From assembly GCF_003991155.1 (NCBI RefSeq), contig NZ_CP031293.1: DNA of 64,000 nt. One strand, given 5' to 3'. Every line of letters begins with the position of its first letter. The first letter of the stretch is position 1. Under the pieces are notes generated by a model. It searched no databases and was not told the DNA's origin. It worked only from the letters and a program-made list of their open reading frames with translations. Below, one piece after another: positions 1,001 to 33,762 of this stretch. The translations under genes and the position numbers were made by a program. The stretch comes from Escherichia coli (GTDB lineage Bacteria > Pseudomonadota > Gammaproteobacteria > Enterobacterales > Enterobacteriaceae).

Positions 1001-1596
1001 AGATCAAAAAACAAGCAATCCACATAACAAAACGCGTTTTGTTACTGATGTCACAAATTGAGCATATTTTTGTATCTGATAGTTTGTTACAAACACCACA
1101 ACCAAGATGCCTATTTCGTTTCAGCATCAACTGTTAAATTATCTGGTTGCCAACGAGAATACTGAGCTTTTTTGTCCCTAAGACTGACCGTCAACGCAAC
1201 AATCTTTGACTGTTTGACATTGTCATGCCCGCAGGCCAGCGGATCTAAAGACATCAGACTGCTTGCATCAGCCAGTTGCGTATCTGGCTATGTCCCTTAA
1301 TTGGTAAGGGTTCGAGGAACTCAACATTAACGCATTTTTCAGCGCATCACCGACAGTGTATATGAACGATTGCACTCTGACGATGGTTGATTTATTTGGT
1401 TGCATAGGGGCTAGCTAGTCTGGTACCGGAGGCTGGATCTGAAGTACTGACCCTAGGAATAACGCCGGGCTGACTCATATTCTGACCCATTGTCAGCCCG
1501 CGTGTTTACTGCTCTAGCTCATTTCCTGTTGTCAGGCATTCAATTCCCAACTGCAGGTTATGGCCCGGTGAGCGAACACCTGACGGCAGGTATCAC

Positions 1597-1770
1597 TCAC
1601 CCGGAGAAGGTAAATCCCTCAAGGGGCAGCAACTCTGCCAGTCGCTCCTCCGGCCACTCCGGCAGACGTGTCAGGACGTCTGTCAGCCAGGCATGTGGCT
1701 CCAGACCGTTGCGTTTCGCGGTTTCCAGCAAGCTCATTATTTGCGCAGCGCGTTCTCCCGCCATACGACA
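1597..1770 (-). pseudogene. IS66-family transposase (TnpC) C-terminal remnant
   Basis: Minus-strand translation ...AGERAAQIMSLLETAKRNGLEPHAWLTDVLTRLPEWPEERLAELLPLEGFTFSG* matches the TnpC C-terminus (compare the intact copy at 13952..15523); no upstream portion present. Confidence 0.6.
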
Positions 1771-1779
1771 GCCGTCAGA

Positions 1780-3642
1780 GCAGTGCGTCAGCGGGCGGCA
1801 GTTTTACCTGGGGTGCTGGCAGAGGTGGTTATGGCAGCGCCAGCCGCGATAATATCCACAGCAACTATGATTCCGTTAATGAGCAGAGCGGTATTTTCGC
1901 AGGCCGGGGTTATTTTGATATCACTGTGGGGAATCACACTCAGCTCGATGGTGCGGTGATTGCTTCGACAGCACCTGCCGACAGGAACTCGCTGGACACC
2001 GGTACTCTGGGCTGGTCGGATATCCATAACCAGGCAGACTATAAAGCCAGCTATACCGGAATCAGTTTATCGGGTGGCTCAGGGATGTCAGCCAGCCAGA
2101 TGGTGGCCTCAAATGCAATAGCCGGTGCGGCGAACGCACTTACCGGTATGTCCGGCAGCAGTGGACATGCTGAAGGTACCACGTCATCCGCCATCAGCGG
2201 CGGAAATCTCATTATCCGTGATAAGGAGAGTCAGAAGCAGGATATTGCCGGGCTCAGCCGGGACCCGGAAAACGCCAACGGCAGCATTGCACCGATATTT
2301 GACAAGGAGAAAGAACAGAAGCGTCTGCAGGAAGCGCAGGTTATCAGCCAGATTAGCGGTCAGATGAGTAATATCGTAATGACGTATGGCGAAACTGAAG
2401 CGATGAAAGCAGCCTGGAAAGAGCATCCTGGCATGAGCGATGCACAGTTGCGGGAGACTCCGGAATACAGAGAGGTCATGAAAGGCTACGGTACGGGCAG
2501 TTCGCCGCAGATGGTGGTACAGGCCATCACGGGCGTGCTGGGCGGACTGAATGCAGGGAACCCGGGGCAGGTATTGGCGGGCGGTCTGAATCCGGCAGTG
2601 GCACAGCTTATAAAACAGTCCACCGGCGATAACCGGGAAGCAAACCTGATGGCTCACGCAGTCTGGGGTGCACTTGCCGCACAACTGGGCGGAAACAATG
2701 CGGCTTCCGGTGCTGCTGGGGCATTCAGTGGTGAACTTGCAGCCTGGTATATCATTGATAACTACTACGGTGGTCGTACCGATAACCTGAGTGAACAGGA
2801 ACGTCAGCAAATCAGCATGCTGGCCACCATTGCCTCTGGTATTGCGGGGGGACTTGCAGGCAACAGTACGGCGTCTGCCGGTACGGGTGCACAGGCAGGA
2901 ACTCGGCTGAAAACAATATGCTGAACGTGATAGCCACTGAAACAGCAGCTAATACGGCAGCAGCAATAGCTGGTGCTACAGGTAATGCCAGTAAGGATAC
3001 CGGGAATGATAATAGCTGGGATACCGGTGGTGTTACGCTGGCTACGGGAACAGTGTGCTGTACGTGATCCGAGTCGCGATGGCACCCGAGGACCGGGGCA
3101 TGTGCTGAATGGCGACAATACAGACGGAAACAAACAGCCGAATCTGGGCAAAGACGTAGCGAGCGCAACGGATAAGGATAAAGCTGAGCTTGGTGGTGCA
3201 GGTGCTGGAATACCGGGGGGGATGGGGACCGGATAATGAAGAAAAAGCCCGTCATCAGGAGGTTCAGCAACAACGATTTGATGAACTGAGTAAAATATAT
3301 GATAAAAGTCACCCGGCCGGAGAGTTAACGGTGGATGGGCAGACTATCAGGCAGAGTTCGGTAAGTAACCGTTATGGTACGACGAAAGTGTTTGAAAGCC
3401 AGACTTTGACGGATAAACAGATCCACAATTACGCACAGCAACTGGCAGGCGATACACCGCTGAAAGAGGTAAAATCGGGAATCTACACGTCTAAACTATC
3501 AGATGGTTCGGTAATAACACTTAGAAACATATCTACATCAGAAGGTCAGACAGGCGCTCGTTGGACTATAGATATTCGTAATAACCAAAAGCTTACTGAA
3601 CTGGGGAATAAATATTCACGTGTGGAGATTAAGTTCAAATGA
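1780..3642 (+). pseudogene. cdiA: Orphan cdiA-CT module 1: 5-prime-truncated CdiA fragment with C-terminal toxin domain, interrupted by at least two frameshifts
   Basis: ORF 1668..2924 encodes a Gly/Ala-rich CdiA pretoxin region; (A)ENN motif at 2906..2917 is in a different frame; toxin ORF 3190..3642 in a third frame; homopolymer G7 at 3214..3220; left end abuts the IS66 remnant. Confidence 0.7.
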
Positions 3643-3995
3643 TTACTGAGTTAAGTGAAAGAGAATACAAGGAGTTGACAGACGCTGCAGAGGGACAGAC
3701 TCTTGATGCTATTTTGTGTTATTCAGTTCCTGATATTCACCCTGCAGAGTTTAGTTTTGCAGATAGAAGAGAAATCTTTTTTTGGGCATTAACCCGTCTT
3801 CTGAAAGAAGGGCGTATCAAACTCGCCAAGCACGGTAAGTTTTTGGAAGGAAGTGTTGACGAGCAGGTTGAGCGTTTTCGACAGGCATTTCCGAAAACAG
3901 AAGAAGAGATGGAAGACGGTATCTGGTTTTTTGATGAGAGTTGTCCGGGGGGGGCTGTTTGGGTGCTTGAAGATGGCTCTCTCGAATGGACCTGA
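3639..3995 (+). CDS. cdiI: CdiI-type immunity protein for module 1 (118 aa, intact)
   Basis: Start overlaps the toxin stop (ATGA at 3639-3642); small acidic AT-rich ORF immediately 3-prime of a CdiA-CT domain. Confidence 0.65.
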
Positions 3996-5112
3996 TAACC
4001 CCTTCACAGCGCAGGATGCGGCGCAGCGAGCGTATAACAACGATATGGCGGCCTCAGTTTTTGGTACCGGAGGGAACGATACAGGCTACAACGGCAGCGG
4101 TACAGGGACTGGCCGGCGGTAATCTGAGTGCAGCCCTGGCAGGTGGTGCAGCACCGTATCTGGCCGAAGTGGTGAAAACCATGACCACAGACCCGGTTAC
4201 CGGTGAGGTGAATAAGGCTGCAAATGTGGCTGCTCATGCCGTGGTGAATGCCGCACTGGCTGTGGCACAGGGAAATAACGCTCTTGCCGGTGCTGTAGGT
4301 GCAGCCACCGGCGAGGTGGTGGGAATGATAGCCACACAGATGTACGGTAAGCCGGTGAGTGAACTGAGCGAGACAGAGAAGCAGACGGTCTCGACACTGG
4401 CAACGGTTGCTGCTGGCCTGGCCGGTGGTCTGGTGGGCGACTCGGGGCTTCAGCGGTAGCCGGCGCACAGTCAGGTAAGACGACTGTTGAGAATAATTTA
4501 CTTGGCGGTAGTGAAGATGCTCAGGCTGCGTGGATACGCCAGCATGGTATCGACATGGCAACATGTGCAGAAAACCCTTCTGGTGCCGCCTGCCAGAAAG
4601 CAATGAATGAGAGGGATGCTGTAGGGCTGGCTCTGGCAACAGGTACAGTGGCACTACTCCCCGGTAGTGCTCAGGCTGTGTGGGGACTGGGAGCAAGTGC
4701 GAATGCTGGTATCAGTTATCTGGCTGATGGTACTGTAGATCCGACAAACGCAGCCATTGCAGGCTGGGTGAATGTGTTCAGCATGGGTAATGGCCTGGCG
4801 GGGACTGTGGGCTGGAATGCGGCAGGTGGTGCGCTGGGTAACTGGATTGACAACAAAGATCCTCTGTCTGGTGCAATTTCAAATGGTATCGGTTCTGCTG
4901 CCGGGTATGGTATCGGTAAAGGTATTACTTGGGGGACAGATAATATTACGAATGCTGTAGGAAAATGGGTGACAAATGGCTGGGATCCTAAGTACGATCC
5001 AACATGGATAAAATATGCTGAAGTAAATCGTAACGATATCATTCGAGAAGGCATGAAACCGAGCAATGTTCTTGGAACTGCTGGAGATATTGGCGGTTCT
5101 ATAGGATCCTAG
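3986..5112 (+). pseudogene. cdiA: Orphan cdiA-CT module 2: CdiA pretoxin fragment, VENN motif, Gly-rich C-terminal toxin domain; frameshifted; no immunity ORF downstream
   Basis: ORF 3986..4459 (..[10 protein letters not shown]..) then frame change; GKTTVENNLLGG at 4474..4506 (VENN 4486..4497) in frame with ORF 4555..5112; nothing coding in 5113..5230. Confidence 0.7.
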
Positions 5113-5230: not shown

Positions 5231-5644
5231 TCACATTATCGTCCACTCCGACTTTGCGCAACTACTGTAGAGTGGTGTACTCCGCGGCTTCTTTGAGGAT
5301 CTCAACTTCCATGTTTTTTTACCCAGCAAGGGCTGTAACTCTTTTATTTTTATAGCGGCAGCCAGTTCTGAGGCAGGAACAACATCCTCTCCGGTAGTAA
5401 CAGCAGCGAGACTTCCTTCCAGGTATTGTTTTTTCCACTTAAACAACAGACTGGGCTGAATACCATGCAAATGCGCCACATGGGACACCCTCATGCCAGG
5501 CTCCGTTGTCTGCTGAATAATGGCAATTTTTTCCTGAGGAGTTTTACGTTTACGAAGCTCCTGCCCCAGCAAAGTTCCAGTTATCTCAAAATTAGAACTA
5601 GTGTTAGACATATATCCAAGCCTATCTCTTATTTTAAGATACAT
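5231..5644 (-). mobile_element. IS transposase OrfA-like HTH protein (IS66/IS3-type accessory protein), solitary, with a frame change at an A7 run
   Basis: ..[78 protein letters not shown] then out of frame; a -1 shift at the A7 run (plus-strand T7 at 5315..5321) restores the conserved ending [16 protein letters not shown]; no cognate transposase ORF adjacent. Confidence 0.6.
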
Positions 5645-11066: not shown

Positions 11067-12303
11067 TGAATATTCGATTCTGCTGATTGATGATGATGCA
11101 GATGTGCTGGACGCCTACACACAGTTACTTGAACAGTCAGGCTATCGGGTTTTTGCCTGTAACAATCCTTTTGAGGCGCAGGCGTGGATACAACCAGACT
11201 GGCCAGGCATTGTGCTAAGTGATGTGTGTATGCCTGGCTGCTCTGGTATCGATTTGATGATGTTATTCCACCAGGATGATCAACAGATCCCCATTCTGCT
11301 TATCACCGGGCACGGCGACGTGCCAATGGCAGTTGATGCGGTAAAAAAAGGCGCGTGGGATTTTTTGCAAAAACCGGTTGATCCCGGCAAATTGCTTTCT
11401 CTGGTTGAAGAGGCGCTACGCCAGCGTCAATCAATCATTGCGCGTCGTCAGTATTGCCAACAGACATTGCAGGTGGAGTTGATAGGGAGAAGTGAATGGA
11501 TAAATCAGTATCGGCGACGTTTACAGCAGTTGTCTGAGACAGATATTGCCGTCTGGCTCTACGGTGCCCCTGGCACAGGACGGATGACCGGTGCACGTTA
11601 TCTGCACCAATTTGGACGTAATGCACAAGGCGAATTTGTCTACCGCGAGCTGACACCAGACAATGCACCACAGCTTAATGATTTCATTGCGCTGGCTCAG
11701 GGGGGAACATTAGTGCTCAGCCATCCTGAACACCTGACGCGTGAACAGCAGTACCATCTGGTTCAGTTACAAAGCCAGGAACACAGACCTTTTCGCCTGA
11801 TTGGTATTGGAGACACCTCGCTGGTCGAGCTGGCCGCCAGCAACCATATCATCGCGGAGCTCTATTACTGCTTTGCAATGACACAAATCGCTTGCCTGCC
11901 ATTAACTCAACGCCCCGACGATATTGAACCACTGTTTCGCCACTACCTTTGTAAGGCATGTCAACGGCTTAACCATCCTGTTCCGGAAGTGGGAAAAGAG
12001 ATGCTCAAAGAGATGATGCGCCGCATGTGGCCAAATAATGTGCGAGAGCTGGCCAATGCAGCAGAACTGTTTACTGTAGGAATATTACCGCTGGCAGAAA
12101 CAGCAAACCCGTTGATGCACGTCGGAACCCCGGCACCGCTTGACAGGCGAGTGGAGGACGCTGAGCGACAGATAATCACAGAGGCGCTTAATATCCATCA
12201 GGGGCGTATCAATGAGGTTGCTGAATATTTACAAATCCCACGGAAAAAACTCTATCTCAGAATGAAAAAATACGGTCTTAGTAAGGAGCATTATAAAATT
12301 TAA
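11047..12303 (+). CDS. pgtA: PgtA, NtrC-family (sigma-54-dependent type) response regulator
   Basis: Receiver domain (LLIDDD...D), AAA+ central domain (GAPGTGR), C-terminal HTH; overlaps pgtB by 20 nt. Confidence 0.85.
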   Translation: MWKMLSSEYSILLIDDDADVLDAYTQLLEQSGYRVFACNNPFEAQAWIQPDWPGIVLSDVCMPGCSGIDLMMLFHQDDQQIPILLITGHGDVPMAVDAVKKGAWDFLQKPVDPGKLLSLVEEALRQRQSIIARRQYCQQTLQVELIGRSEWINQYRRRLQQLSETDIAVWLYGAPGTGRMTGARYLHQFGRNAQGEFVYRELTPDNAPQLNDFIALAQGGTLVLSHPEHLTREQQYHLVQLQSQEHRPFRLIGIGDTSLVELAASNHIIAELYYCFAMTQIACLPLTQRPDDIEPLFRHYLCKACQRLNHPVPEVGKEMLKEMMRRMWPNNVRELANAAELFTVGILPLAETANPLMHVGTPAPLDRRVEDAERQIITEALNIHQGRINEVAEYLQIPRKKLYLRMKKYGLSKEHYKI

Positions 12304-12324
12304 CCATCAGACTTGTGAGCTTGT

Positions 12325-12552
12325 TCATAATGTTATGTCATTTGTGTGATTCATAGACATCGTTTCAATTTTCTCAGCAAGTTCAAAGTAGTGTTCCATC
12401 GGAGTTTTACCGTTGTGAGCGCTATGAGGACGTTCCCAGTTATAGTAATGCTGCCATTCTGCCAGCAGTTCCTTCAGGTCATCAGCAGAAAGATCTACGG
12501 TAGCGTAAAACTCAGCTTTGTTCACGATCACCAACATCGTAAATGGCTCCAC
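12325..12552 (-). pseudogene. Transposase C-terminal fragment (rve/integrase-core type, IS3-like)
   Basis: 75-aa ORF containing ...HYYNWERPHSAHNGKTPMEHY..., the conserved C-terminal motif of DDE integrase-core transposases; no N-terminal part. Confidence 0.55.
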
Positions 12553-12854
12553 CTCGATACCTGCCAGTTCATGAGATTAGTCGAATCCGATGTTCCCCGC
12601 GTTATGTGCCCGAAGCGTTGTTGCCAGCCCCTGCCTGTAGCATGGACTGGTCCGGCAGCCGGTACTCGCTGCTGTTCGAATTGTTCGTGCTCTCATGGCT
12701 AAAAATCAGCACCGTTGATGCCGTCAGGAAACAACTTAAAATTAGCTGGAATGCCGTTGACGGCATTATGACTCGTGTGGTTAAGCGCGGTCTGTCCCGG
12801 ATGAAAAAGCCTTTATTAGCACGTCATATGAATGTAGACGAAGTCGCCTTTAAA
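12543..12854 (+). pseudogene. Transposase N-terminal fragment (family uncertain) disrupted by the IS66-family insertion
   Basis: ORF 12543..12908 runs into the IS66 left inverted repeat; after removing the IS the frame ends ...DEVAFKKV*. Confidence 0.4.
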
Positions 12855-12907
12855 GTAAGCGCCTCATCTGAACCGTCTGGTCTGTTTCCTCCGGCTCCAC
12901 AAAAATA

Positions 12908-13585
12908 ATGTCCATCATTTTTAATGGACACTATCGTATGGAATACCGGACCTGGATCACCGAAGCTTTACGTCTTCACTTTGAAGAACATTTACCACGG
13001 ATTGTGGCCGGACGTCGCCTGGGCGTACCAAAATCAACAGTTTGTGGTATGTTCGTGCGCTTCCGCAAAGCTGGCCTTTCATGGCCTCTGCCCGCAGGTA
13101 TGTCGGAGCGGGAACTTGATGCCCGTCTTTACGGGAGTGCCTCCACAGTACCTGTCGTACTTACTGAAAACACCGTTATGTCCGAAGTCCCGGTGGTAAA
13201 AAAACGTCCCCGGCGGCCTAATTTTCCTTATGAGTTTAAAATCGCCTTAGTGGAGCAGTCACTGCAGCCCGGAGCCTGTGTGGCGCAGATCGCCCGTGAA
13301 AACGGAATCAACGATAACCTGCTCTTCAACTGGCGCCATCAATACCGGAAAGGTGGCCTGCTGCCTTCCGGAAAAAATATGCCTGCACTGCTTCCCGTGA
13401 CGTTAACGCCGGAGCCGGATAATAAAATCCCGGCTCCGGCACAGGAACCAGAGCAGATAAATACACCGTCCGACAGTCTGTGCTGTGAGCTGGTTCTGCC
13501 GGCCGGAACTCTCAGGCTGAAAGGTGAACTGACACCGGCGTTATTACAGACACTTATCCGCGAAATGAAAGGGAGCAGCCACTGA
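12908..13585 (+). CDS. tnpA: IS66-family accessory protein TnpA (ORF as tracked; true start may be internal)
   Basis: Contains ..FPYEFKIALVEQSLQPGACVAQIARENGINDNLLFNWRHQYRKGG.. typical of IS66 OrfA. Confidence 0.7.
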   Translation: MSIIFNGHYRMEYRTWITEALRLHFEEHLPRIVAGRRLGVPKSTVCGMFVRFRKAGLSWPLPAGMSERELDARLYGSASTVPVVLTENTVMSEVPVVKKRPRRPNFPYEFKIALVEQSLQPGACVAQIARENGINDNLLFNWRHQYRKGGLLPSGKNMPALLPVTLTPEPDNKIPAPAQEPEQINTPSDSLCCELVLPAGTLRLKGELTPALLQTLIREMKGSSH

Positions 13586-13932
13586 TGATATCTCTCCCTG
13601 CAGGTTCGCGTATCTGGCTGGTTGCCGGTATCACCGACATGCGAAATGGCTTTAACGGCCTGGCCTCAAAAGTTCAGAACGTCCTGAAGGATGACCCGTT
13701 CTCCGGACACCTGTTCATCTTCCGCGGACGCCGGGGTGACCAGATAAAAGTGTTGTGGGCTGACAGCGACGGACTGTGCCTCTTCACCAAACGCCTGGAG
13801 CGGGGCCGCTTCGTCTGGCCGGTCACCCGTGACGGCAAGGTGCACCTTACTCCGGCCCAGTTATCCATGCTTCTTGAGGGCATCGACTGGAAACATCCAA
13901 AACGAACGGAACGCACTGGCATCCGCATATAA
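13585..13932 (+). CDS. tnpB: IS66-family TnpB
   Basis: MISLPAGSRIWLVAGITDMRNGFNGLA... is the canonical IS66 OrfB start; ATGA overlap with tnpA. Confidence 0.85.
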   Translation: MISLPAGSRIWLVAGITDMRNGFNGLASKVQNVLKDDPFSGHLFIFRGRRGDQIKVLWADSDGLCLFTKRLERGRFVWPVTRDGKVHLTPAQLSMLLEGIDWKHPKRTERTGIRI

Positions 13933-13951
13933 CCCGTTGTAAAGTGAGGAT

Positions 13952-15523
13952 ATGGACACCTCACTTGCTCATGAGAACGCCCGCCTGCGGGCACTGTTGC
14001 AGGCGCAACAGGACACCATCCGCCAGATGGCCGAATACAATTGCCTGCTCTCACAGCGGGTGGCGGCTTATGCTTCTGAAATCAACCGGCTGAAGGCGCT
14101 GGTTGCAAAACTGCAGCGCATGCAGTTCGGTAAAAGCTCAGAAAAACTTCGCGCAAAAACCGAACGACAGATACAGGAAGCACAGGAGCGAATCAGCGCA
14201 CTTCAGGAAGAAATGGCGGAAACACTGGGTGAGCAATATGACCCGGCACTGCCATCTTCCCTGCGCCAGTCTTCAGCCCGTAAACCGTTACCGGCTGCAC
14301 TTCCCCGTGAATCCCGGGTTATCCGGCCGGAAGAGGAATGCTGCCCGGCTTGTGGTGGCGAACTCAGTTCTCTGGGATGTGATGTGTCAGAGCAACTGGA
14401 GCTTATCAGCAGCGCCTTTAAGGTTATCGAAACACAACGTCCGAAACTGGCCTGTTGCCGGTGCGACCATATCGTGCAGGCACCAGTACCTTCAAAACCC
14501 ATTGCACGCAGTTATGCCGGAGCGGGGCTTCTGGCTCATATCGTCACCGGGAAGTATGCAGACCATCTGCCGTTATACCGCCAGTCAGAAATATACCGTC
14601 GTCAGGGCGTGGAACTGAGCCGCGCCACGCTGGGGCGCTGGACCAGTGCCGTTGCTGAACTGCTGGAGCCGCTGTATGACGTGCTGCGCCAGTATGTGCT
14701 GATGCCCGGTAAAGTCCATGCGGATGATATCCCCGTTCCGGTCCAGGAGCCGGGCAGTGGTAAAACAAGAACTGCCCGGCTGTGGGTTTACGTCCGTGAT
14801 GACCGTAACGCCGGTTCACAGATGCCCCCGGCGGTCTGGTTCGCGTACAGCCCGGACCGGAAAGGTATCCATCCACAGAATCACCTGGCCGGTTACAGCG
14901 GTGTGCTTCAGGCCGATGCTTACGGTGGTTACCGGGCGTTATACGAATCCGGCAGAATAACGGAAGCCGCGTGTATGGCCCATGCCCGGAGAAAAATCCA
15001 CGATGTGCATGCAAGAGCGCCTACCGATATCACCACGGAAGCCCTGCAGCGTATCGGTGAACTGTATGCAATCGAGGCAGAGGTCCGGGGATGTTCAGCA
15101 GAACAGCGTCTGGCGGCAAGAAAAGCCAGAGCTGCGCCACTGATGCAGTCGTTGTACGACTGGATACAGACTCAGATGAAAACACTGTCGCGTCACTCGG
15201 ATACGGCAAAAGCGTTCGCATACCTGCTGAAACAGTGGGGTGGCCTGAACGTGTACTGCAGTAATGGCTGGGTGGAAATCGACAACAACATCGCAGAGAA
15301 CGCCTTACGGGGAGTAGCCGTAGGCCGGAAAAACTGGCTGTTCGCAGGTTCCGACAGCGGTGGTGAACATGCGGCGGTGTTGTACTCGCTGATCGGCACA
15401 TGTCGTCTGAACAATGTGGAGCTAGAAAAGTGGCTGCGCTACGTCATTGAGCATATCCAGGACTGGCCGGCAAACCGGGTACGCGATCTGTTGCCCTGGA
15501 AAGTTGATCTGAGCTCTCAGTAA
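13952..15523 (+). CDS. tnpC: IS66-family transposase TnpC
   Basis: 523-aa ORF with N-terminal leucine zipper, CxxC zinc ribbon (CPACGG) and DDE domain. Confidence 0.85.
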
Positions 15524-15873
15524 ATATCAATACGGTTCTGACGAGCCGCTTACCCTTTAAAAAGGTATAGGTATATAACAGTAATATCTGATCGTAACGG
15601 ACGGACGCTGGAATTAACCGATGACCGCAGCACAGAGAGTAGGGGATGCGGACGGTCAAAGATCGCGGCGTTGGATTTTATAAATCTGTCTCCAGTAGTA
15701 GATGAACTGAATACAAAGTTGCCAGAGAGTGGTCTGTCAGGCAGGGAATCAGAAACTGGATATTATTGACTGGTACATTGTGTCGGGCTGTGTACGTTCT
15801 CCCCGGACAGACAGTCTCAGTTCGTAGAATCTATAAATTACTGCTACTGATGCTGCCGGGGAAAGGCGTAACG

Positions 15874-15910
15874 AAAAAACAGCCTCCGTTACCGGACAGC
15901 AAGGAGGCTG
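15874..15910 (-). terminator. Intrinsic terminator-like hairpin (CAGCCTCC / GGAGGCTG stem followed by T6 on the minus strand), about 190 bp downstream of papI
   Basis: Inverted repeat and U-tract read from sequence. Confidence 0.4.
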
Positions 15911-16101
15911 AATGGAGTTTACAGGATTTGCTTTTTTATAATGTCTGGCCATGCAGTAAAACCGGACAGGTTTTATTATCATGTGAGGTATTCTGACATA
16001 AAATGCTGGATTTTTATTTTGTGACGAATGCTGCAAAATTGAATCTGCACTCTGATGTAACTTTTATCTGTTTCAGTGAAGCATGCCCACAAATTGAGTT
16101 A

Positions 16102-16335
16102 TTAAGTTGTGGAAGAACAGTTTTGTCCCGCCTGCATCTCTCCTTTCAAAAACCAGTATGTTGCCATGCCTCGCCTTAATGGAGAGCGCTGAACCACACC
16201 TTCTTTTTCCAGTAATAACAGGTAATAGCGTGCCTGATAATCCGTTACCGCCAGCGCCTCCGCAATTTCTGCGGTTTTCCCTCCATTATGCCTGTTCAGA
16301 AATTCCAGTATTTCATTCTTCATATATTCACTCAT
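16102..16335 (-). CDS. papI: PapI, pap phase-variation regulator
   Basis: 77-aa [65 protein letters not shown]... matches PapI; divergent from papB. Confidence 0.95.
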
Positions 16336-16528
16336 CTCACTGTAACAAAGTTTCTTCGAATAATAAAAATCATGCTCTCTGTTATCAACGGAAAGGTATT
16401 TTTATTCTCTATGTTTGCTTTATTTGTGAAATTTAGTGAATTTGCTTTTTGTTGGCTTTATTTGATGTGTATCACATTTTGTGTGTTATTTTTCTGTGAA
16501 AAGAAAGTCCGTAAAAATGCATTTAGAC

Positions 16529-16634
16529 GATCTTTTATGCTGTAAATTCAATTCACCATGATGTTTTTATCTGAGTGTATTCTTGTTGTTGGTGTTTTAT
16601 TCTGGTTTGATTTTGTTTTGTGGGTTAAAAGATC
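16529..16634. promoter_or_regulatory. pap phase-variation switch: distal GATC (16529..16532) and proximal GATC (16631..16634), 102 bp apart, in the papI/papB intergenic region
   Basis: Two GATC sites in the expected contexts (GACGATCTTTTA and AAAGATCGTTTA) at the canonical spacing. Confidence 0.85.
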
Positions 16635-16739
16635 GTTTAAATCAATATTTACAACATAAAAAACTAAATTTAACTTATTGCGTGAAGAGTATTTCAGGGC
16701 CGGAAGCATATATCCAGGGGCCCGACAGAAGGGGGAAAC

Positions 16740-32223: not shown

Positions 32224-33489
32224 TCACCTTTTCAGTGGATTGTTAACTTTTGCATATTCAAACGGACTGATACCCTTATCTCTGTTTGCATCCAGAAAAT
32301 CTGCCCACCATTGCAGCATAAGCCGACGTTCTTCCAGATGTTCTGCTTTATGAATATACGCGGCACGTACTCCGTTGCGCTCCTGATGACTCATCTGACG
32401 TTCAACCGCATCTCTTGACCATAAACCGGATTCAATCAATGCACTGCACGCCATCGCCCGGAATCCATGGCCACAGACTTCCTTGGTTGTGTCATACCCC
32501 ATCACTCTGAGGGCCTTATTTACGGTATTTTCACTGATTGGTTTACGCGGGTCATGTGCTCCCGTAAAGATCAGACCATTTTCACCAGCCCATGTCTGAA
32601 GTTCTGTCAGTATGGCTACAGCCTGTTTGCTGAGTGGCACAAGATGTGGTGTTCGCATCTTGGAGCCCCGGTGTGAGAATTTTACCCCTGGCAGAGGTTT
32701 GCGTTCGGCTGGAATAGTCCACATGGCATTGTCAATATCAATTTCAGACCAGCGGGCGTATCTGAGTTCACTGGAACGAATAAAAACCAGTAAATTCAGC
32801 ATAACGGCAAGCCGGGTGACAGGCTGACCTTTATAACTGTTAATACGCGACAGAAGTTCAGGCAGACGTGAAAGATCAAGAGCGGGGCGATGCTGGCGTT
32901 TTACCGTAGTCAATGCGCCAGCCATATCCAGAGCAGGATTATATCTGATGATGCCAGACTGTACGGCATAACGCATTACGGCAGATATTCTTTGCTGCAG
33001 ACGACTGGCGATTTCATAAATTTGTTTAGCTTCTGCAGCACGAACAGGGATAAGCAGATCCGGGGTATTGAGTGTTGTGATATCCCGGTTGCCGATAAAG
33101 GGGAAAACGTGTGTTTCGAGGCTTTTGAGTACTTTATCGCTGTGTGATTGTGCCCATTGTTTATTACTGGCATGCCAGCGTCGTGCAATATGTTCAAAAG
33201 AGAGCTGTAAATCAGGGACTACTTTTTTAGCTCTTTTCTGTTCGCAAGGGTCAATCCCCTCCGAAATCAGTTTTCGGGCCTCATCCCGTTTTGTACGAGC
33301 TTCGGAGAGAGAAACTTCTGGATACACACCAAGTGCCAGAGTCTTCTCCTTACCCAGAATACGATAACGGAGACGCCAGTAACGGGAACCATTAGGATGT
33401 ACCAGCAGGAACATGCCAGCCCCGTCAGTGAGTTTATAAGCCTTGTCAGTGGGCTTTGCAGCCCGGATTTTTGCGTCAGTCAGTGCCAT
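32224..33489 (-). CDS. P4-type (CP4-57-like) tyrosine integrase
   Basis: 421-aa ORF MALTDAKIRAAKPTDKAYKLTDGAGMFLLVHPNGSRYWRLRYR... with C-terminal catalytic region; immediately downstream of tRNA-Phe in the same orientation. Confidence 0.92.
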   Translation of the reverse strand: MALTDAKIRAAKPTDKAYKLTDGAGMFLLVHPNGSRYWRLRYRILGKEKTLALGVYPEVSLSEARTKRDEARKLISEGIDPCEQKRAKKVVPDLQLSFEHIARRWHASNKQWAQSHSDKVLKSLETHVFPFIGNRDITTLNTPDLLIPVRAAEAKQIYEIASRLQQRISAVMRYAVQSGIIRYNPALDMAGALTTVKRQHRPALDLSRLPELLSRINSYKGQPVTRLAVMLNLLVFIRSSELRYARWSEIDIDNAMWTIPAERKPLPGVKFSHRGSKMRTPHLVPLSKQAVAILTELQTWAGENGLIFTGAHDPRKPISENTVNKALRVMGYDTTKEVCGHGFRAMACSALIESGLWSRDAVERQMSHQERNGVRAAYIHKAEHLEERRLMLQWWADFLDANRDKGISPFEYAKVNNPLKR

Positions 33490-33686: not shown

Positions 33687-33762
33687 TGGTGCCCGGACTC
33701 GGAATCGAACCAAGGACACGGGGATTTTCAATCCCCTGCTCTACCGACTGAGCTATCCGGGC
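33687..33762 (-). tRNA. pheV: tRNA-Phe (GAA anticodon), 76 nt including CCA
   Basis: Reverse complement reads GCCCGGATAGCTCAGTCGGTAGAGCAGGGGATTGAAAATCCCCGTGTCCTTGGTTCGATTCCGAGTCCGGGCACCA; locus assigned as pheV from flanking yqgA/speC. Confidence 0.95.

Follow-up and report, generated by a model that had tools for sequence, protein, structure and literature searches.

Structure of the locus

The window analysed here is a stretch of 64,000 nucleotides from an Escherichia coli contig (NZ_CP031293.1, assembly GCF_003991155.1). It contains a complete, ISCro1-like insertion sequence of the IS66 family which lies within the remains of an ISL3-family transposase gene, close to the pap genes (Table 1). 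The IS66 family is recognised in part by terminal inverted repeats that are imperfect, about 20-30 bp long and begin with GTAA, and by an 8-bp target-site duplication, and both are present here. The right end, read as its reverse complement (GTAAGCGGCTCGTCAGAACCGT), agrees with the left end at 19 of 22 positions, and a copy of CCTTTAAA directly touches the inverted repeat on each side, the two copies being perfect matches of a sequence that occurs once at empty sites. A sequence-only reading of this DNA had described an intact, nested IS66-family element with a perfect 8-bp duplication. The boundaries, inverted repeats and open reading frames (ORFs) all bear this out, and the limits of the repeats and duplication hold on realignment, the end given in that reading (15561) being the last base of the right-hand CCTTTAAA.

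Table 1. Features of the insertion, its target and the related fragments, in coordinates of the window
Feature	Position	Strand	Details
Another IS66-family member, 3' end fragment	1440..1773	-	TnpC C-terminus 1597-1773, PF13817 E=1.2e-18
IS481-family terminal fragment	12336..12521	-	transposase C-terminus and terminal inverted repeat (12336-12367); ~92 bp internal deletion
ISL3-family (ISEc53-like) transposase gene, decayed internal fragment, left part	12519..12854	+	insertion target
Target-site duplication, left copy	12847..12854	.	CCTTTAAA, 8 bp
IS66-family insertion sequence, complete, ISCro1-like	12855..15553	+	2,699 bp
Left terminal inverted repeat	12855..12876	+	GTAAGCGCCTCATCTGAACCGT; 19/22 complementary to right end
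tnpA	12908..13585	+	225-aa HTH accessory protein; NF038385, PF01527
tnpB	13585..13932	+	115-aa IS66 accessory protein; PF05717, NF033819
tnpC	13952..15523	+	523-aa DDE transposase; PF13007, PF13005, PF03050, PF13817, NF033517
Right terminal inverted repeat	15532..15553	+	ACGGTTCTGACGAGCCGCTTAC; pairs with left end
Target-site duplication, right copy	15554..15561	.	CCTTTAAA, 8 bp
ISL3-family fragment, right part, resuming past the element	15562..15640	+	alignment crosses the in-silico excision joint

The three transposition genes have no internal stop codons, and their products match the family profiles well above the cutoffs. TnpA covers the whole of the NF038385 (IS66_access_TnpA) profile (positions 1-190 of 190; E=5.8e-86, 286.9 bits against a cutoff of 150), and TnpB matches both PF05717 (E=2.7e-40) and NF033819 (E=5.2e-38, 128.9 bits, cutoff 50). 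TnpC has the leucine zipper, zinc finger, DDE and C-terminal domains, with PF03050 matched over positions 1-283 of 284 (E=1.5e-103) and NF033517 at E=1.4e-141 (472 bits, cutoff 180). The ATG of tnpB shares one base with the stop codon of tnpA in the sequence TGATG (13583-13587). The element has both the TnpC domain set and the overlapping upstream tnpA and tnpB genes that are expected of the IS66 family. From what is known of this family, TnpC would be the DDE catalytic subunit and TnpA, with its HTH domain, and TnpB would be required accessory proteins, while tnpA, tnpB and tnpC may be translated as a coupled operon. When TnpC and TnpB were used as queries in sequence searches of the PDB, no solved relative came up, and a narrow full-text search returned no papers on the IS66 mechanism.

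Relationship to ISCro1 and other known elements

The first description of ISCro1 came from Citrobacter rodentium ICC168, which has 24 copies of it (PMC3072379). The copy used for comparison is located in the last 5 kb of plasmid pCROD1; there was no ISCro1 in positions 1-50000 of this plasmid or in pCROD2. The two elements are collinear and gap-free over their full length with 95.15% nucleotide identity, and have the same length, ORFs of the same size (225, 115 and 523 aa) and the same GTAAGCG... ends. They differ by 131 substitutions, three of which are in the left non-coding end, and protein identity is 210/225 (93.3%) for TnpA, 112/115 (97.4%) for TnpB and 510/523 (97.5%) for TnpC. Synonymous codon differences outnumber non-synonymous ones by 88 to 31, which indicates purifying selection. 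By the ISfinder convention, isoforms have at least 95% nucleotide and/or at least 98% transposase amino acid identity to the reference. Compared in this way with the pCROD1 copy, the element would fall at the border of the ISCro1 isoform threshold. Identity to the element in the window is 95-96.7% for E. coli copies called 'ISCro1 family' in NCBI annotation; the TnpC of the window element (WP_021563310.1) is named there only as 'IS66 family transposase'.

The IS66 prototype IS679 is about 2.7 kb in size, with a tnpA-tnpB-tnpC operon in which tnpA and tnpB overlap, inverted repeats of about 20-25 bp and an 8-bp duplication, and its transposition reportedly needs TnpA, TnpB and TnpC. The element described here resembles IS679 in gene order, tnpA/tnpB overlap, inverted repeats, duplication and size, although IS679 is a separate named element. 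What lies in the window is an ordinary copy of a well-known, ISCro1-type insertion sequence, and nothing about it points to anything new.

Copies at least 99.9% identical to this variant were found at other loci, where they are bordered by the 8-bp duplications ATTTTTTC, CCACATTA, GCAGAATC, TTATTAAG and TTATGAGT, and a further copy, 99.3% identical, has the duplication TCTATATC. Since near-identical copies are associated with different duplications, the variant appears to be currently active in E. coli. One of the copies that are 100% identical (at L015) has flanks which are themselves IS66-type repeats.

The target of insertion

The ORF beginning at 12543, which had been taken for a decayed and disrupted host ORF, is indeed both decayed and disrupted. 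It matches PF13542 (HTH_Tnp_ISL3, E=5.6e-9) and positions 69-135 of NF033550, as is expected of the ISL3 family, and at the DNA level the fragment corresponds to nucleotides ~159-576 of the ISEc53 coding sequence with 88% identity over 418 bp. It is therefore an internal piece of a transposase gene, truncated at both ends and frameshifted by deletions of 1 nt and 2 nt. The same frameshifts are found in genomes with an empty site, which shows that the target had already decayed when the element was inserted.

To the left of it, a minus-strand ORF of 75 aa (12325-12552) matches rve_3. This had been read as an IS3-like C-terminal fragment; it is a decayed fragment as proposed, although the IS3 label was rejected, as the NCBIfam profile NF033577 for IS481 (E=1.5e-10) scores better than that for IS3 (E=1.1e-6). 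The DNA of 12336..12521, its terminal inverted repeat included, shares 92-98% identity with elements annotated as IS481/ISEc18, and together with the profile scores this places the fragment in the IS481 family. Both the inverted repeat and the internal deletion were seen by alignment to an intact copy (in L027).

Empty and filled sites

When the element is excised in silico, leaving one CCTTTAAA, a continuous sequence is restored as the sequence-only reading had anticipated, and at least 24 complete E. coli genomes match it over 1,200 bp with 100% identity. An empty site with a single CCTTTAAA is present in L011, L012 and L013. In the last of these, strain Combat2C1, alignment of the left arm stops at 12854 and that of the right arm starts at 15554, and the eight bases that are common to both alignments are the single CCTTTAAA; it follows that the insertion structure is not due to chance. 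The filled site was found in only one of 5,426 complete genomes, that of FDAARGOS_1284, which is 99.99-100% identical to the window and 100% identical across the element itself. It is also present in about 14 draft contigs (L014 and 12 similar, and L022), with flanks that are 100% identical. In FDAARGOS_1284 the element as query gave two megablast places, the second of which may be a partial or distant IS66.

The identity of the empty sites, the restriction of the filled site to one lineage and the existence of 100% identical copies of the element elsewhere all suggest that the insertion is recent, as had been proposed, and on these comparisons it appears to be confined to a single clonal lineage. 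The filled site could thus be used as a marker of that lineage.

Origin of the insertion

We consider it highly probable (about 0.95) that an ISCro1-type IS66 element transposed into a dead ISL3-family transposase remnant, and that this was a recent event in one clonal lineage which is most likely neutral. The ISL3 remnant, along with that of IS481, bounds the pap (papG-III) fimbrial module on its left side, within an E. coli pathogenicity island that is associated with pheV. In the proposed mechanism the DDE transposase would cut the target with an 8-bp stagger, the inverted-repeat ends would be joined to it and repair of the gaps would duplicate CCTTTAAA; the product of such cutting and joining, inverted-repeat ends joined to a target with duplicated CCTTTAAA, is what is observed. 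The locus offers a clean and datable case of one insertion sequence nested in another at a module boundary in a pheV island of the uropathogenic type. Beyond annotation, the importance of the insertion is small.

A functional role is conceivable, in that read-out transcription from tnpC or an altered local DNA structure might change the phase-variable expression of P (PapG-III) fimbriae through papI and papB, but this seems very unlikely. The genes tnpC and papI point towards each other, and the end of the element is 549 bp from the papI stop codon. However the element interrupts only a pseudogene beyond the 3' end of papI. The regulatory intergenic region between papI and papB (about 16336-16739) does not include it, and it is also beyond a hairpin followed by a run of T residues that can be recognised in the sequence downstream of papI (about 15886-15915). 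A scan for promoter and terminator consensus sequences around the element and papI gave nothing above shuffled expectation. The insertion is thus most likely neutral on the evidence of its position. In favour of a functional role, there is a known parallel in ST131: an ISCro1 that sits 440 bp upstream of afaA, within the afaF-afaA regulatory region, measurably reduces afa transcription (PMC8764528). The two cases are alike in the type of element, the proximity of a fimbrial operon, the genomic island setting and the presence of other insertion sequences at the same spot, but in the afa/dr case the element is inside the regulatory region, whereas here it is downstream of papI, outside that region and in a dead transposase gene. 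The more specific proposal that the lineage-specific insertion changes PapG-III fimbrial expression or phase variation, by read-out transcription or by an altered binding of nucleoid proteins, is if anything even harder to credit; if it were true, the effect on pap would parallel that reported for the afa operon.

The pgt-pap junction as a hotspot

The sequence-only reading also regarded the pgt-pap junction as a recurrent hotspot. The traces of three families (IS481, ISL3 and IS66) within about 3.3 kb, and strain K56-43-un, in which the same debris has a different left neighbour, support this in a historical sense, and in ST131 ISCro1 likewise occupies a spot rich in insertion sequences upstream of the afa fimbrial operon (PMC8764528). 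For the present day the claim is unsupported, as the debris is uninterrupted in about 42 of the 43 complete genomes that carry it, the one exception having the insertion, and this particular insertion seems to have occurred just once. That the junction is a hotspot still active in insertion and recombination, at which recombination between the two IS66-type sequences, separated by 11 kb, can lead to inversion or deletion of the pgt segment, is therefore, in our view, a decidedly improbable reading.

The recombination part of it can be regarded as largely refuted already. It depended on a decayed TnpC fragment at 1597..1770, which is real (Table 1) but belongs to a different element. Its amino acid identity to the intact TnpC is 38% over 50 residues, blastn of the 1597-1773 fragment against the intact element found no nucleotide similarity, and the longest exact match is 10 nt, while RecA-mediated recombination needs roughly 20-30 bp of identity. 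The fragment is also on the opposite strand. Taken together, these observations rule out homologous recombination between the two in practice.

To the suggestion that the element brought DNA from its flanks with it, through homologous recombination or within a composite transposon, and that the repeat of CCTTTAAA is a coincidence, we attach almost no weight: some plasmids do have ISCro1 adjoining ISEc53, so that a donor with both exists, but these are only about 94-95% identical to the window, the flanks in the window show 100% identity with empty-site chromosomes as far as the 8-bp CCTTTAAA, and the same variant is bordered elsewhere by 8-bp duplications of unrelated sequence. The plasmid arrangement was rejected as a case of shared nesting, since ISCro1 there is beside ISEc53 and not inside it, and the adjacency is coincidental.

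The corrected labels (IS481, ISL3/ISEc53-like and an unrelated IS66 fragment) should forestall the mistaken inference of an IS66-mediated inversion or deletion of the pgt segment. The fragment at 1440..1773 is 91% identical in nucleotide sequence to the IS66-type flank of copies of the element at two other loci (L015 and L023).

Structure and family of the element

The insertion between the pgt and pap modules extends from 12855 to 15553 (2,699 bp), since its terminal inverted repeats (left, GTAAGCGCCTCATCTGAACCGT; right end, as reverse complement, GTAAGCGGCTCGTCAGAACCGT) sit there with identical octamers, CCTTTAAA, abutting them. The sequence-only reading had proposed an intact IS66-family element nested with an 8-bp duplication, and repeats, octamers, three ORFs and family profiles agree on this; its repeats and duplication hold, and only the end it gave, 15561, is the final base of the right duplication, not of the IS. 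The stop of tnpA and the start of tnpB overlap (TGATG), and 19 nt separate tnpB from tnpC.

Matches of the three proteins to Pfam and NCBIfam models were full-length and high-scoring: TnpA to NF038385 'IS66-like element accessory protein TnpA' (286.9 bits, 1-190 of 190) and also PF01527, TnpB to PF05717 (E=2.7e-40) and NF033819, and TnpC to PF13007, PF13005, PF03050 (E=1.5e-103), PF13817 and NF033517 (472 bits). The product, inverted-repeat ends joined to the target with an 8-bp duplication, is what a staggered cut would leave. From family knowledge, TnpC would act as DDE catalyst, with TnpA and TnpB as required accessory proteins, roles reportedly described by Han et al. 2001. A PDB sequence search found no solved relatives of TnpC or TnpB. 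Beta-clamp-binding motifs have been reported in IS66 proteins (PMC3971601).

Features of the insertion and its surroundings
Feature	Position	Strand	Details	Basis
tnpA	12908-13585	same as tnpB, tnpC	225 aa	ORF list, sequence reading
tnpB	13585-13932	same as tnpA, tnpC	115 aa	ORF list, sequence reading
tnpC	13952-15523	same as tnpA, tnpB	523 aa	ORF list, sequence reading
Terminal inverted repeats	12855-12876 and 15532-15553		19/22 complementary	Repeat search, direct check
Duplicated octamer	12847-12854 and 15554-15561		copies identical	
IS481 terminal inverted repeat	12336-12367	minus (fragment)		Alignment to intact copy L027
IS66 TnpC C-terminus	1597-1773	minus		PF13817, E=1.2e-18
IS2-type (IS3-family) OrfA remnant	5231-5644	minus	frameshifted	NF006928, E=1e-34
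Tyrosine integrase gene	32224-33489		adjoins tRNA-Phe	
tRNA-Phe	33687-33762	minus	island end	

Empty and filled sites

In-silico excision (12855..15561 removed, one octamer kept) restored a continuous sequence, as predicted: the 1,200-bp product has full-length 100% matches in 24 or more complete genomes, and in 43 genomes at least 80% of it is covered. In three empty-site loci (L011, L012 and L013, the last from Combat2C1) the left alignment stops at 12854 and the right one starts at 15554, and the same 8 query bases, the signature of target-site duplication, are common to both. The filled site (query 12255-16161) occurs in one of 5,426 complete genomes, that of FDAARGOS_1284 (NZ_CP070170.1), to which the window is 99.993% identical over the first 30.5 kb (two substitutions in 1-30553) and 100% over the remaining 33.7 kb (none). 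The window therefore stems from the lineage of FDAARGOS_1284, or from a further assembly of that strain, not from NZ_CP070170.1 itself. Draft assemblies, located by exact TnpC protein look-up, have the pgtA-IS-papI order at L014 (with 12 similar places) and L022, the 7.5-kb loci being 100% identical. One filled complete genome and identical draft loci show that the insertion has become fixed in a single clonal lineage; this confinement, with the 100% identical empty sites, supports the recent insertion that had been supposed.

Relation to ISCro1 and copies elsewhere

The IS query was matched in 3,049 of the 5,426 complete E. coli genomes, in which copies annotated as 'ISCro1 family' share 95-96.7% identity with it, and plasmids of Escherichia, Klebsiella, Shigella and Salmonella commonly carry the IS as well. 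ISCro1 from plasmid pCROD1 of C. rodentium ICC168 aligns without gaps across all 2,699 bp at 95.15% identity, with 510/523 (TnpC), 112/115 (TnpB) and 210/225 (TnpA) identical residues, and codon differences are synonymous in 88 cases and non-synonymous in 31. The IS is a variant of the well-known ISCro1, at the isoform border, an element of an already known kind in an ordinary situation. ISCro1 has expanded further than any other IS in C. rodentium, to 24 copies (PMC3072379).

Copies 99.9-100% identical to the IS lie at other loci within different 8-bp duplications (ATTTTTTC, CCACATTA, GCAGAATC, TTATTAAG and TTATGAGT), and copies of 99.3% and 95% identity within TCTATATC and GTTTAAAG, respectively. 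This shows that the variant in the window is actively transposing and that 8 bp is its normal duplication length. The nine different ISCro1-type duplications (L002, L006, L009, L010, L015-L023 and the window) average ~71% A+T, and two contain TTTAAA, which in this small sample gives a hint that AT-rich targets are preferred. Near-identical copies at L005/L018/L020, L007, L008 and L003 lack matching 8-bp flanks, L007 and L008 having a common right flank (an S6 peptidase gene) and different left flanks, a pattern that points to adjacent deletions or IS-mediated rearrangements in those genomes. A group II intron splits the copy of 98.6-98.7% identity in H6 and H7 (E. coli 1105; Z0117EC0098, canine), with reverse transcriptase/maturase genes annotated within the IS match.

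Older debris and the island

The disrupted ORF (from 12543) has an ISL3-type HTH (PF13542, NF033550), and 12519-12854 plus 15562-15640, read across the excision joint, are 88% identical to the ISEc53 transposase gene (nt ~159-576) and carry one 1-nt and one 2-nt deletion. What had been taken for a decayed host ORF is decayed indeed, and is a doubly truncated, frameshifted internal fragment of an ISL3-type transposase; because the empty-site genomes are identical here, it was already dead when the IS inserted. The minus-strand fragment next to it, previously labelled IS3-like, is not of that type: it fits the IS481 model better (E=1.5e-10 vs 1.1e-6), and at the DNA level it shares 92-98% identity with annotated IS481/ISEc18 elements. 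Its homology to the intact IS481 copy of L027 extends to 12521, with a ~92-bp internal deletion relative to intact elements (L027 alignment; ~12370-12386; L011). A short repeated motif, TTTCTCAG...CAAGTTCAA, flanks this deletion. A second version of the pgt-pap junction (CU42ET-1 and five others) keeps the 92 bp, and since these six genomes do so at the same junction, two alleles of the IS481/ISL3 debris are in circulation.

Traces of three IS families do lie between the pgtA stop (12303) and papI (16102-16335), but the active hotspot proposed there is not borne out: 43 complete genomes carry 80% or more of the debris, and in only one of them is anything inserted. The debris travels with pap, as in K56-43-un it precedes papI but comes after unrelated genes, and this is the mark of a mosaic boundary between modules. 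IS remnants also sit at other module boundaries of the window, at 1440-1773 and, just before pgtP, in the form of the IS2-type remnant. Pathogenicity-island mosaics typically have junctions like this one, which is not a demonstrated preferred target.

The second IS66 fragment had been offered as a partner for recombination across 11 kb. It is inverted relative to the intact IS, has 38% identity to intact TnpC over 50 aa and no blastn similarity to the IS, and shares with it no exact match longer than 10 nt; the two are not credible partners for homologous recombination. It matches at ~91% identity another IS66-type sequence, which flanks the L015/L023 copies in a region annotated ISEc23/ISEc43-like. 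Both what the sequence-only reading observed and the core of its interpretation are right; its IS3 label, recombination partner and active hotspot are not.

The tRNA-Phe end and integrase, with core chromosome (yqgA, speC ... tkt) beyond, identify the pathogenicity island as one of the pheV type. Its cargo comprises nanXY, orphan VENN toxin modules, pgtPCBA and a papG-III operon, in which papG occupies about 24169-25176. Orphan VENN-motif pre-toxin (CdiA-CT-like) fragments follow one another at 1926-5112, adjoined by the IS66 fragment of 1440-1773; going by the annotation of FDAARGOS_1284, the small ORFs downstream of them are probably immunity genes. A long ORF (1668-2924) overlaps the TnpC fragment on the opposite strand.

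Possible consequences for pap

The IS disrupts a pseudogene only. An ISCro1 copy that lies within the afa regulatory region of ST131 reduces afa transcription (PMC8764528), whereas the IS in the window lies outside the papI-papB control region, convergent with papI and 549 bp from its stop codon. A consensus scan for promoters and terminators around the IS and papI gave nothing above chance, and a regulatory effect on pap is possible but unsupported. A hairpin with a T-run can be read between the IS and papI at about 15886-15915.
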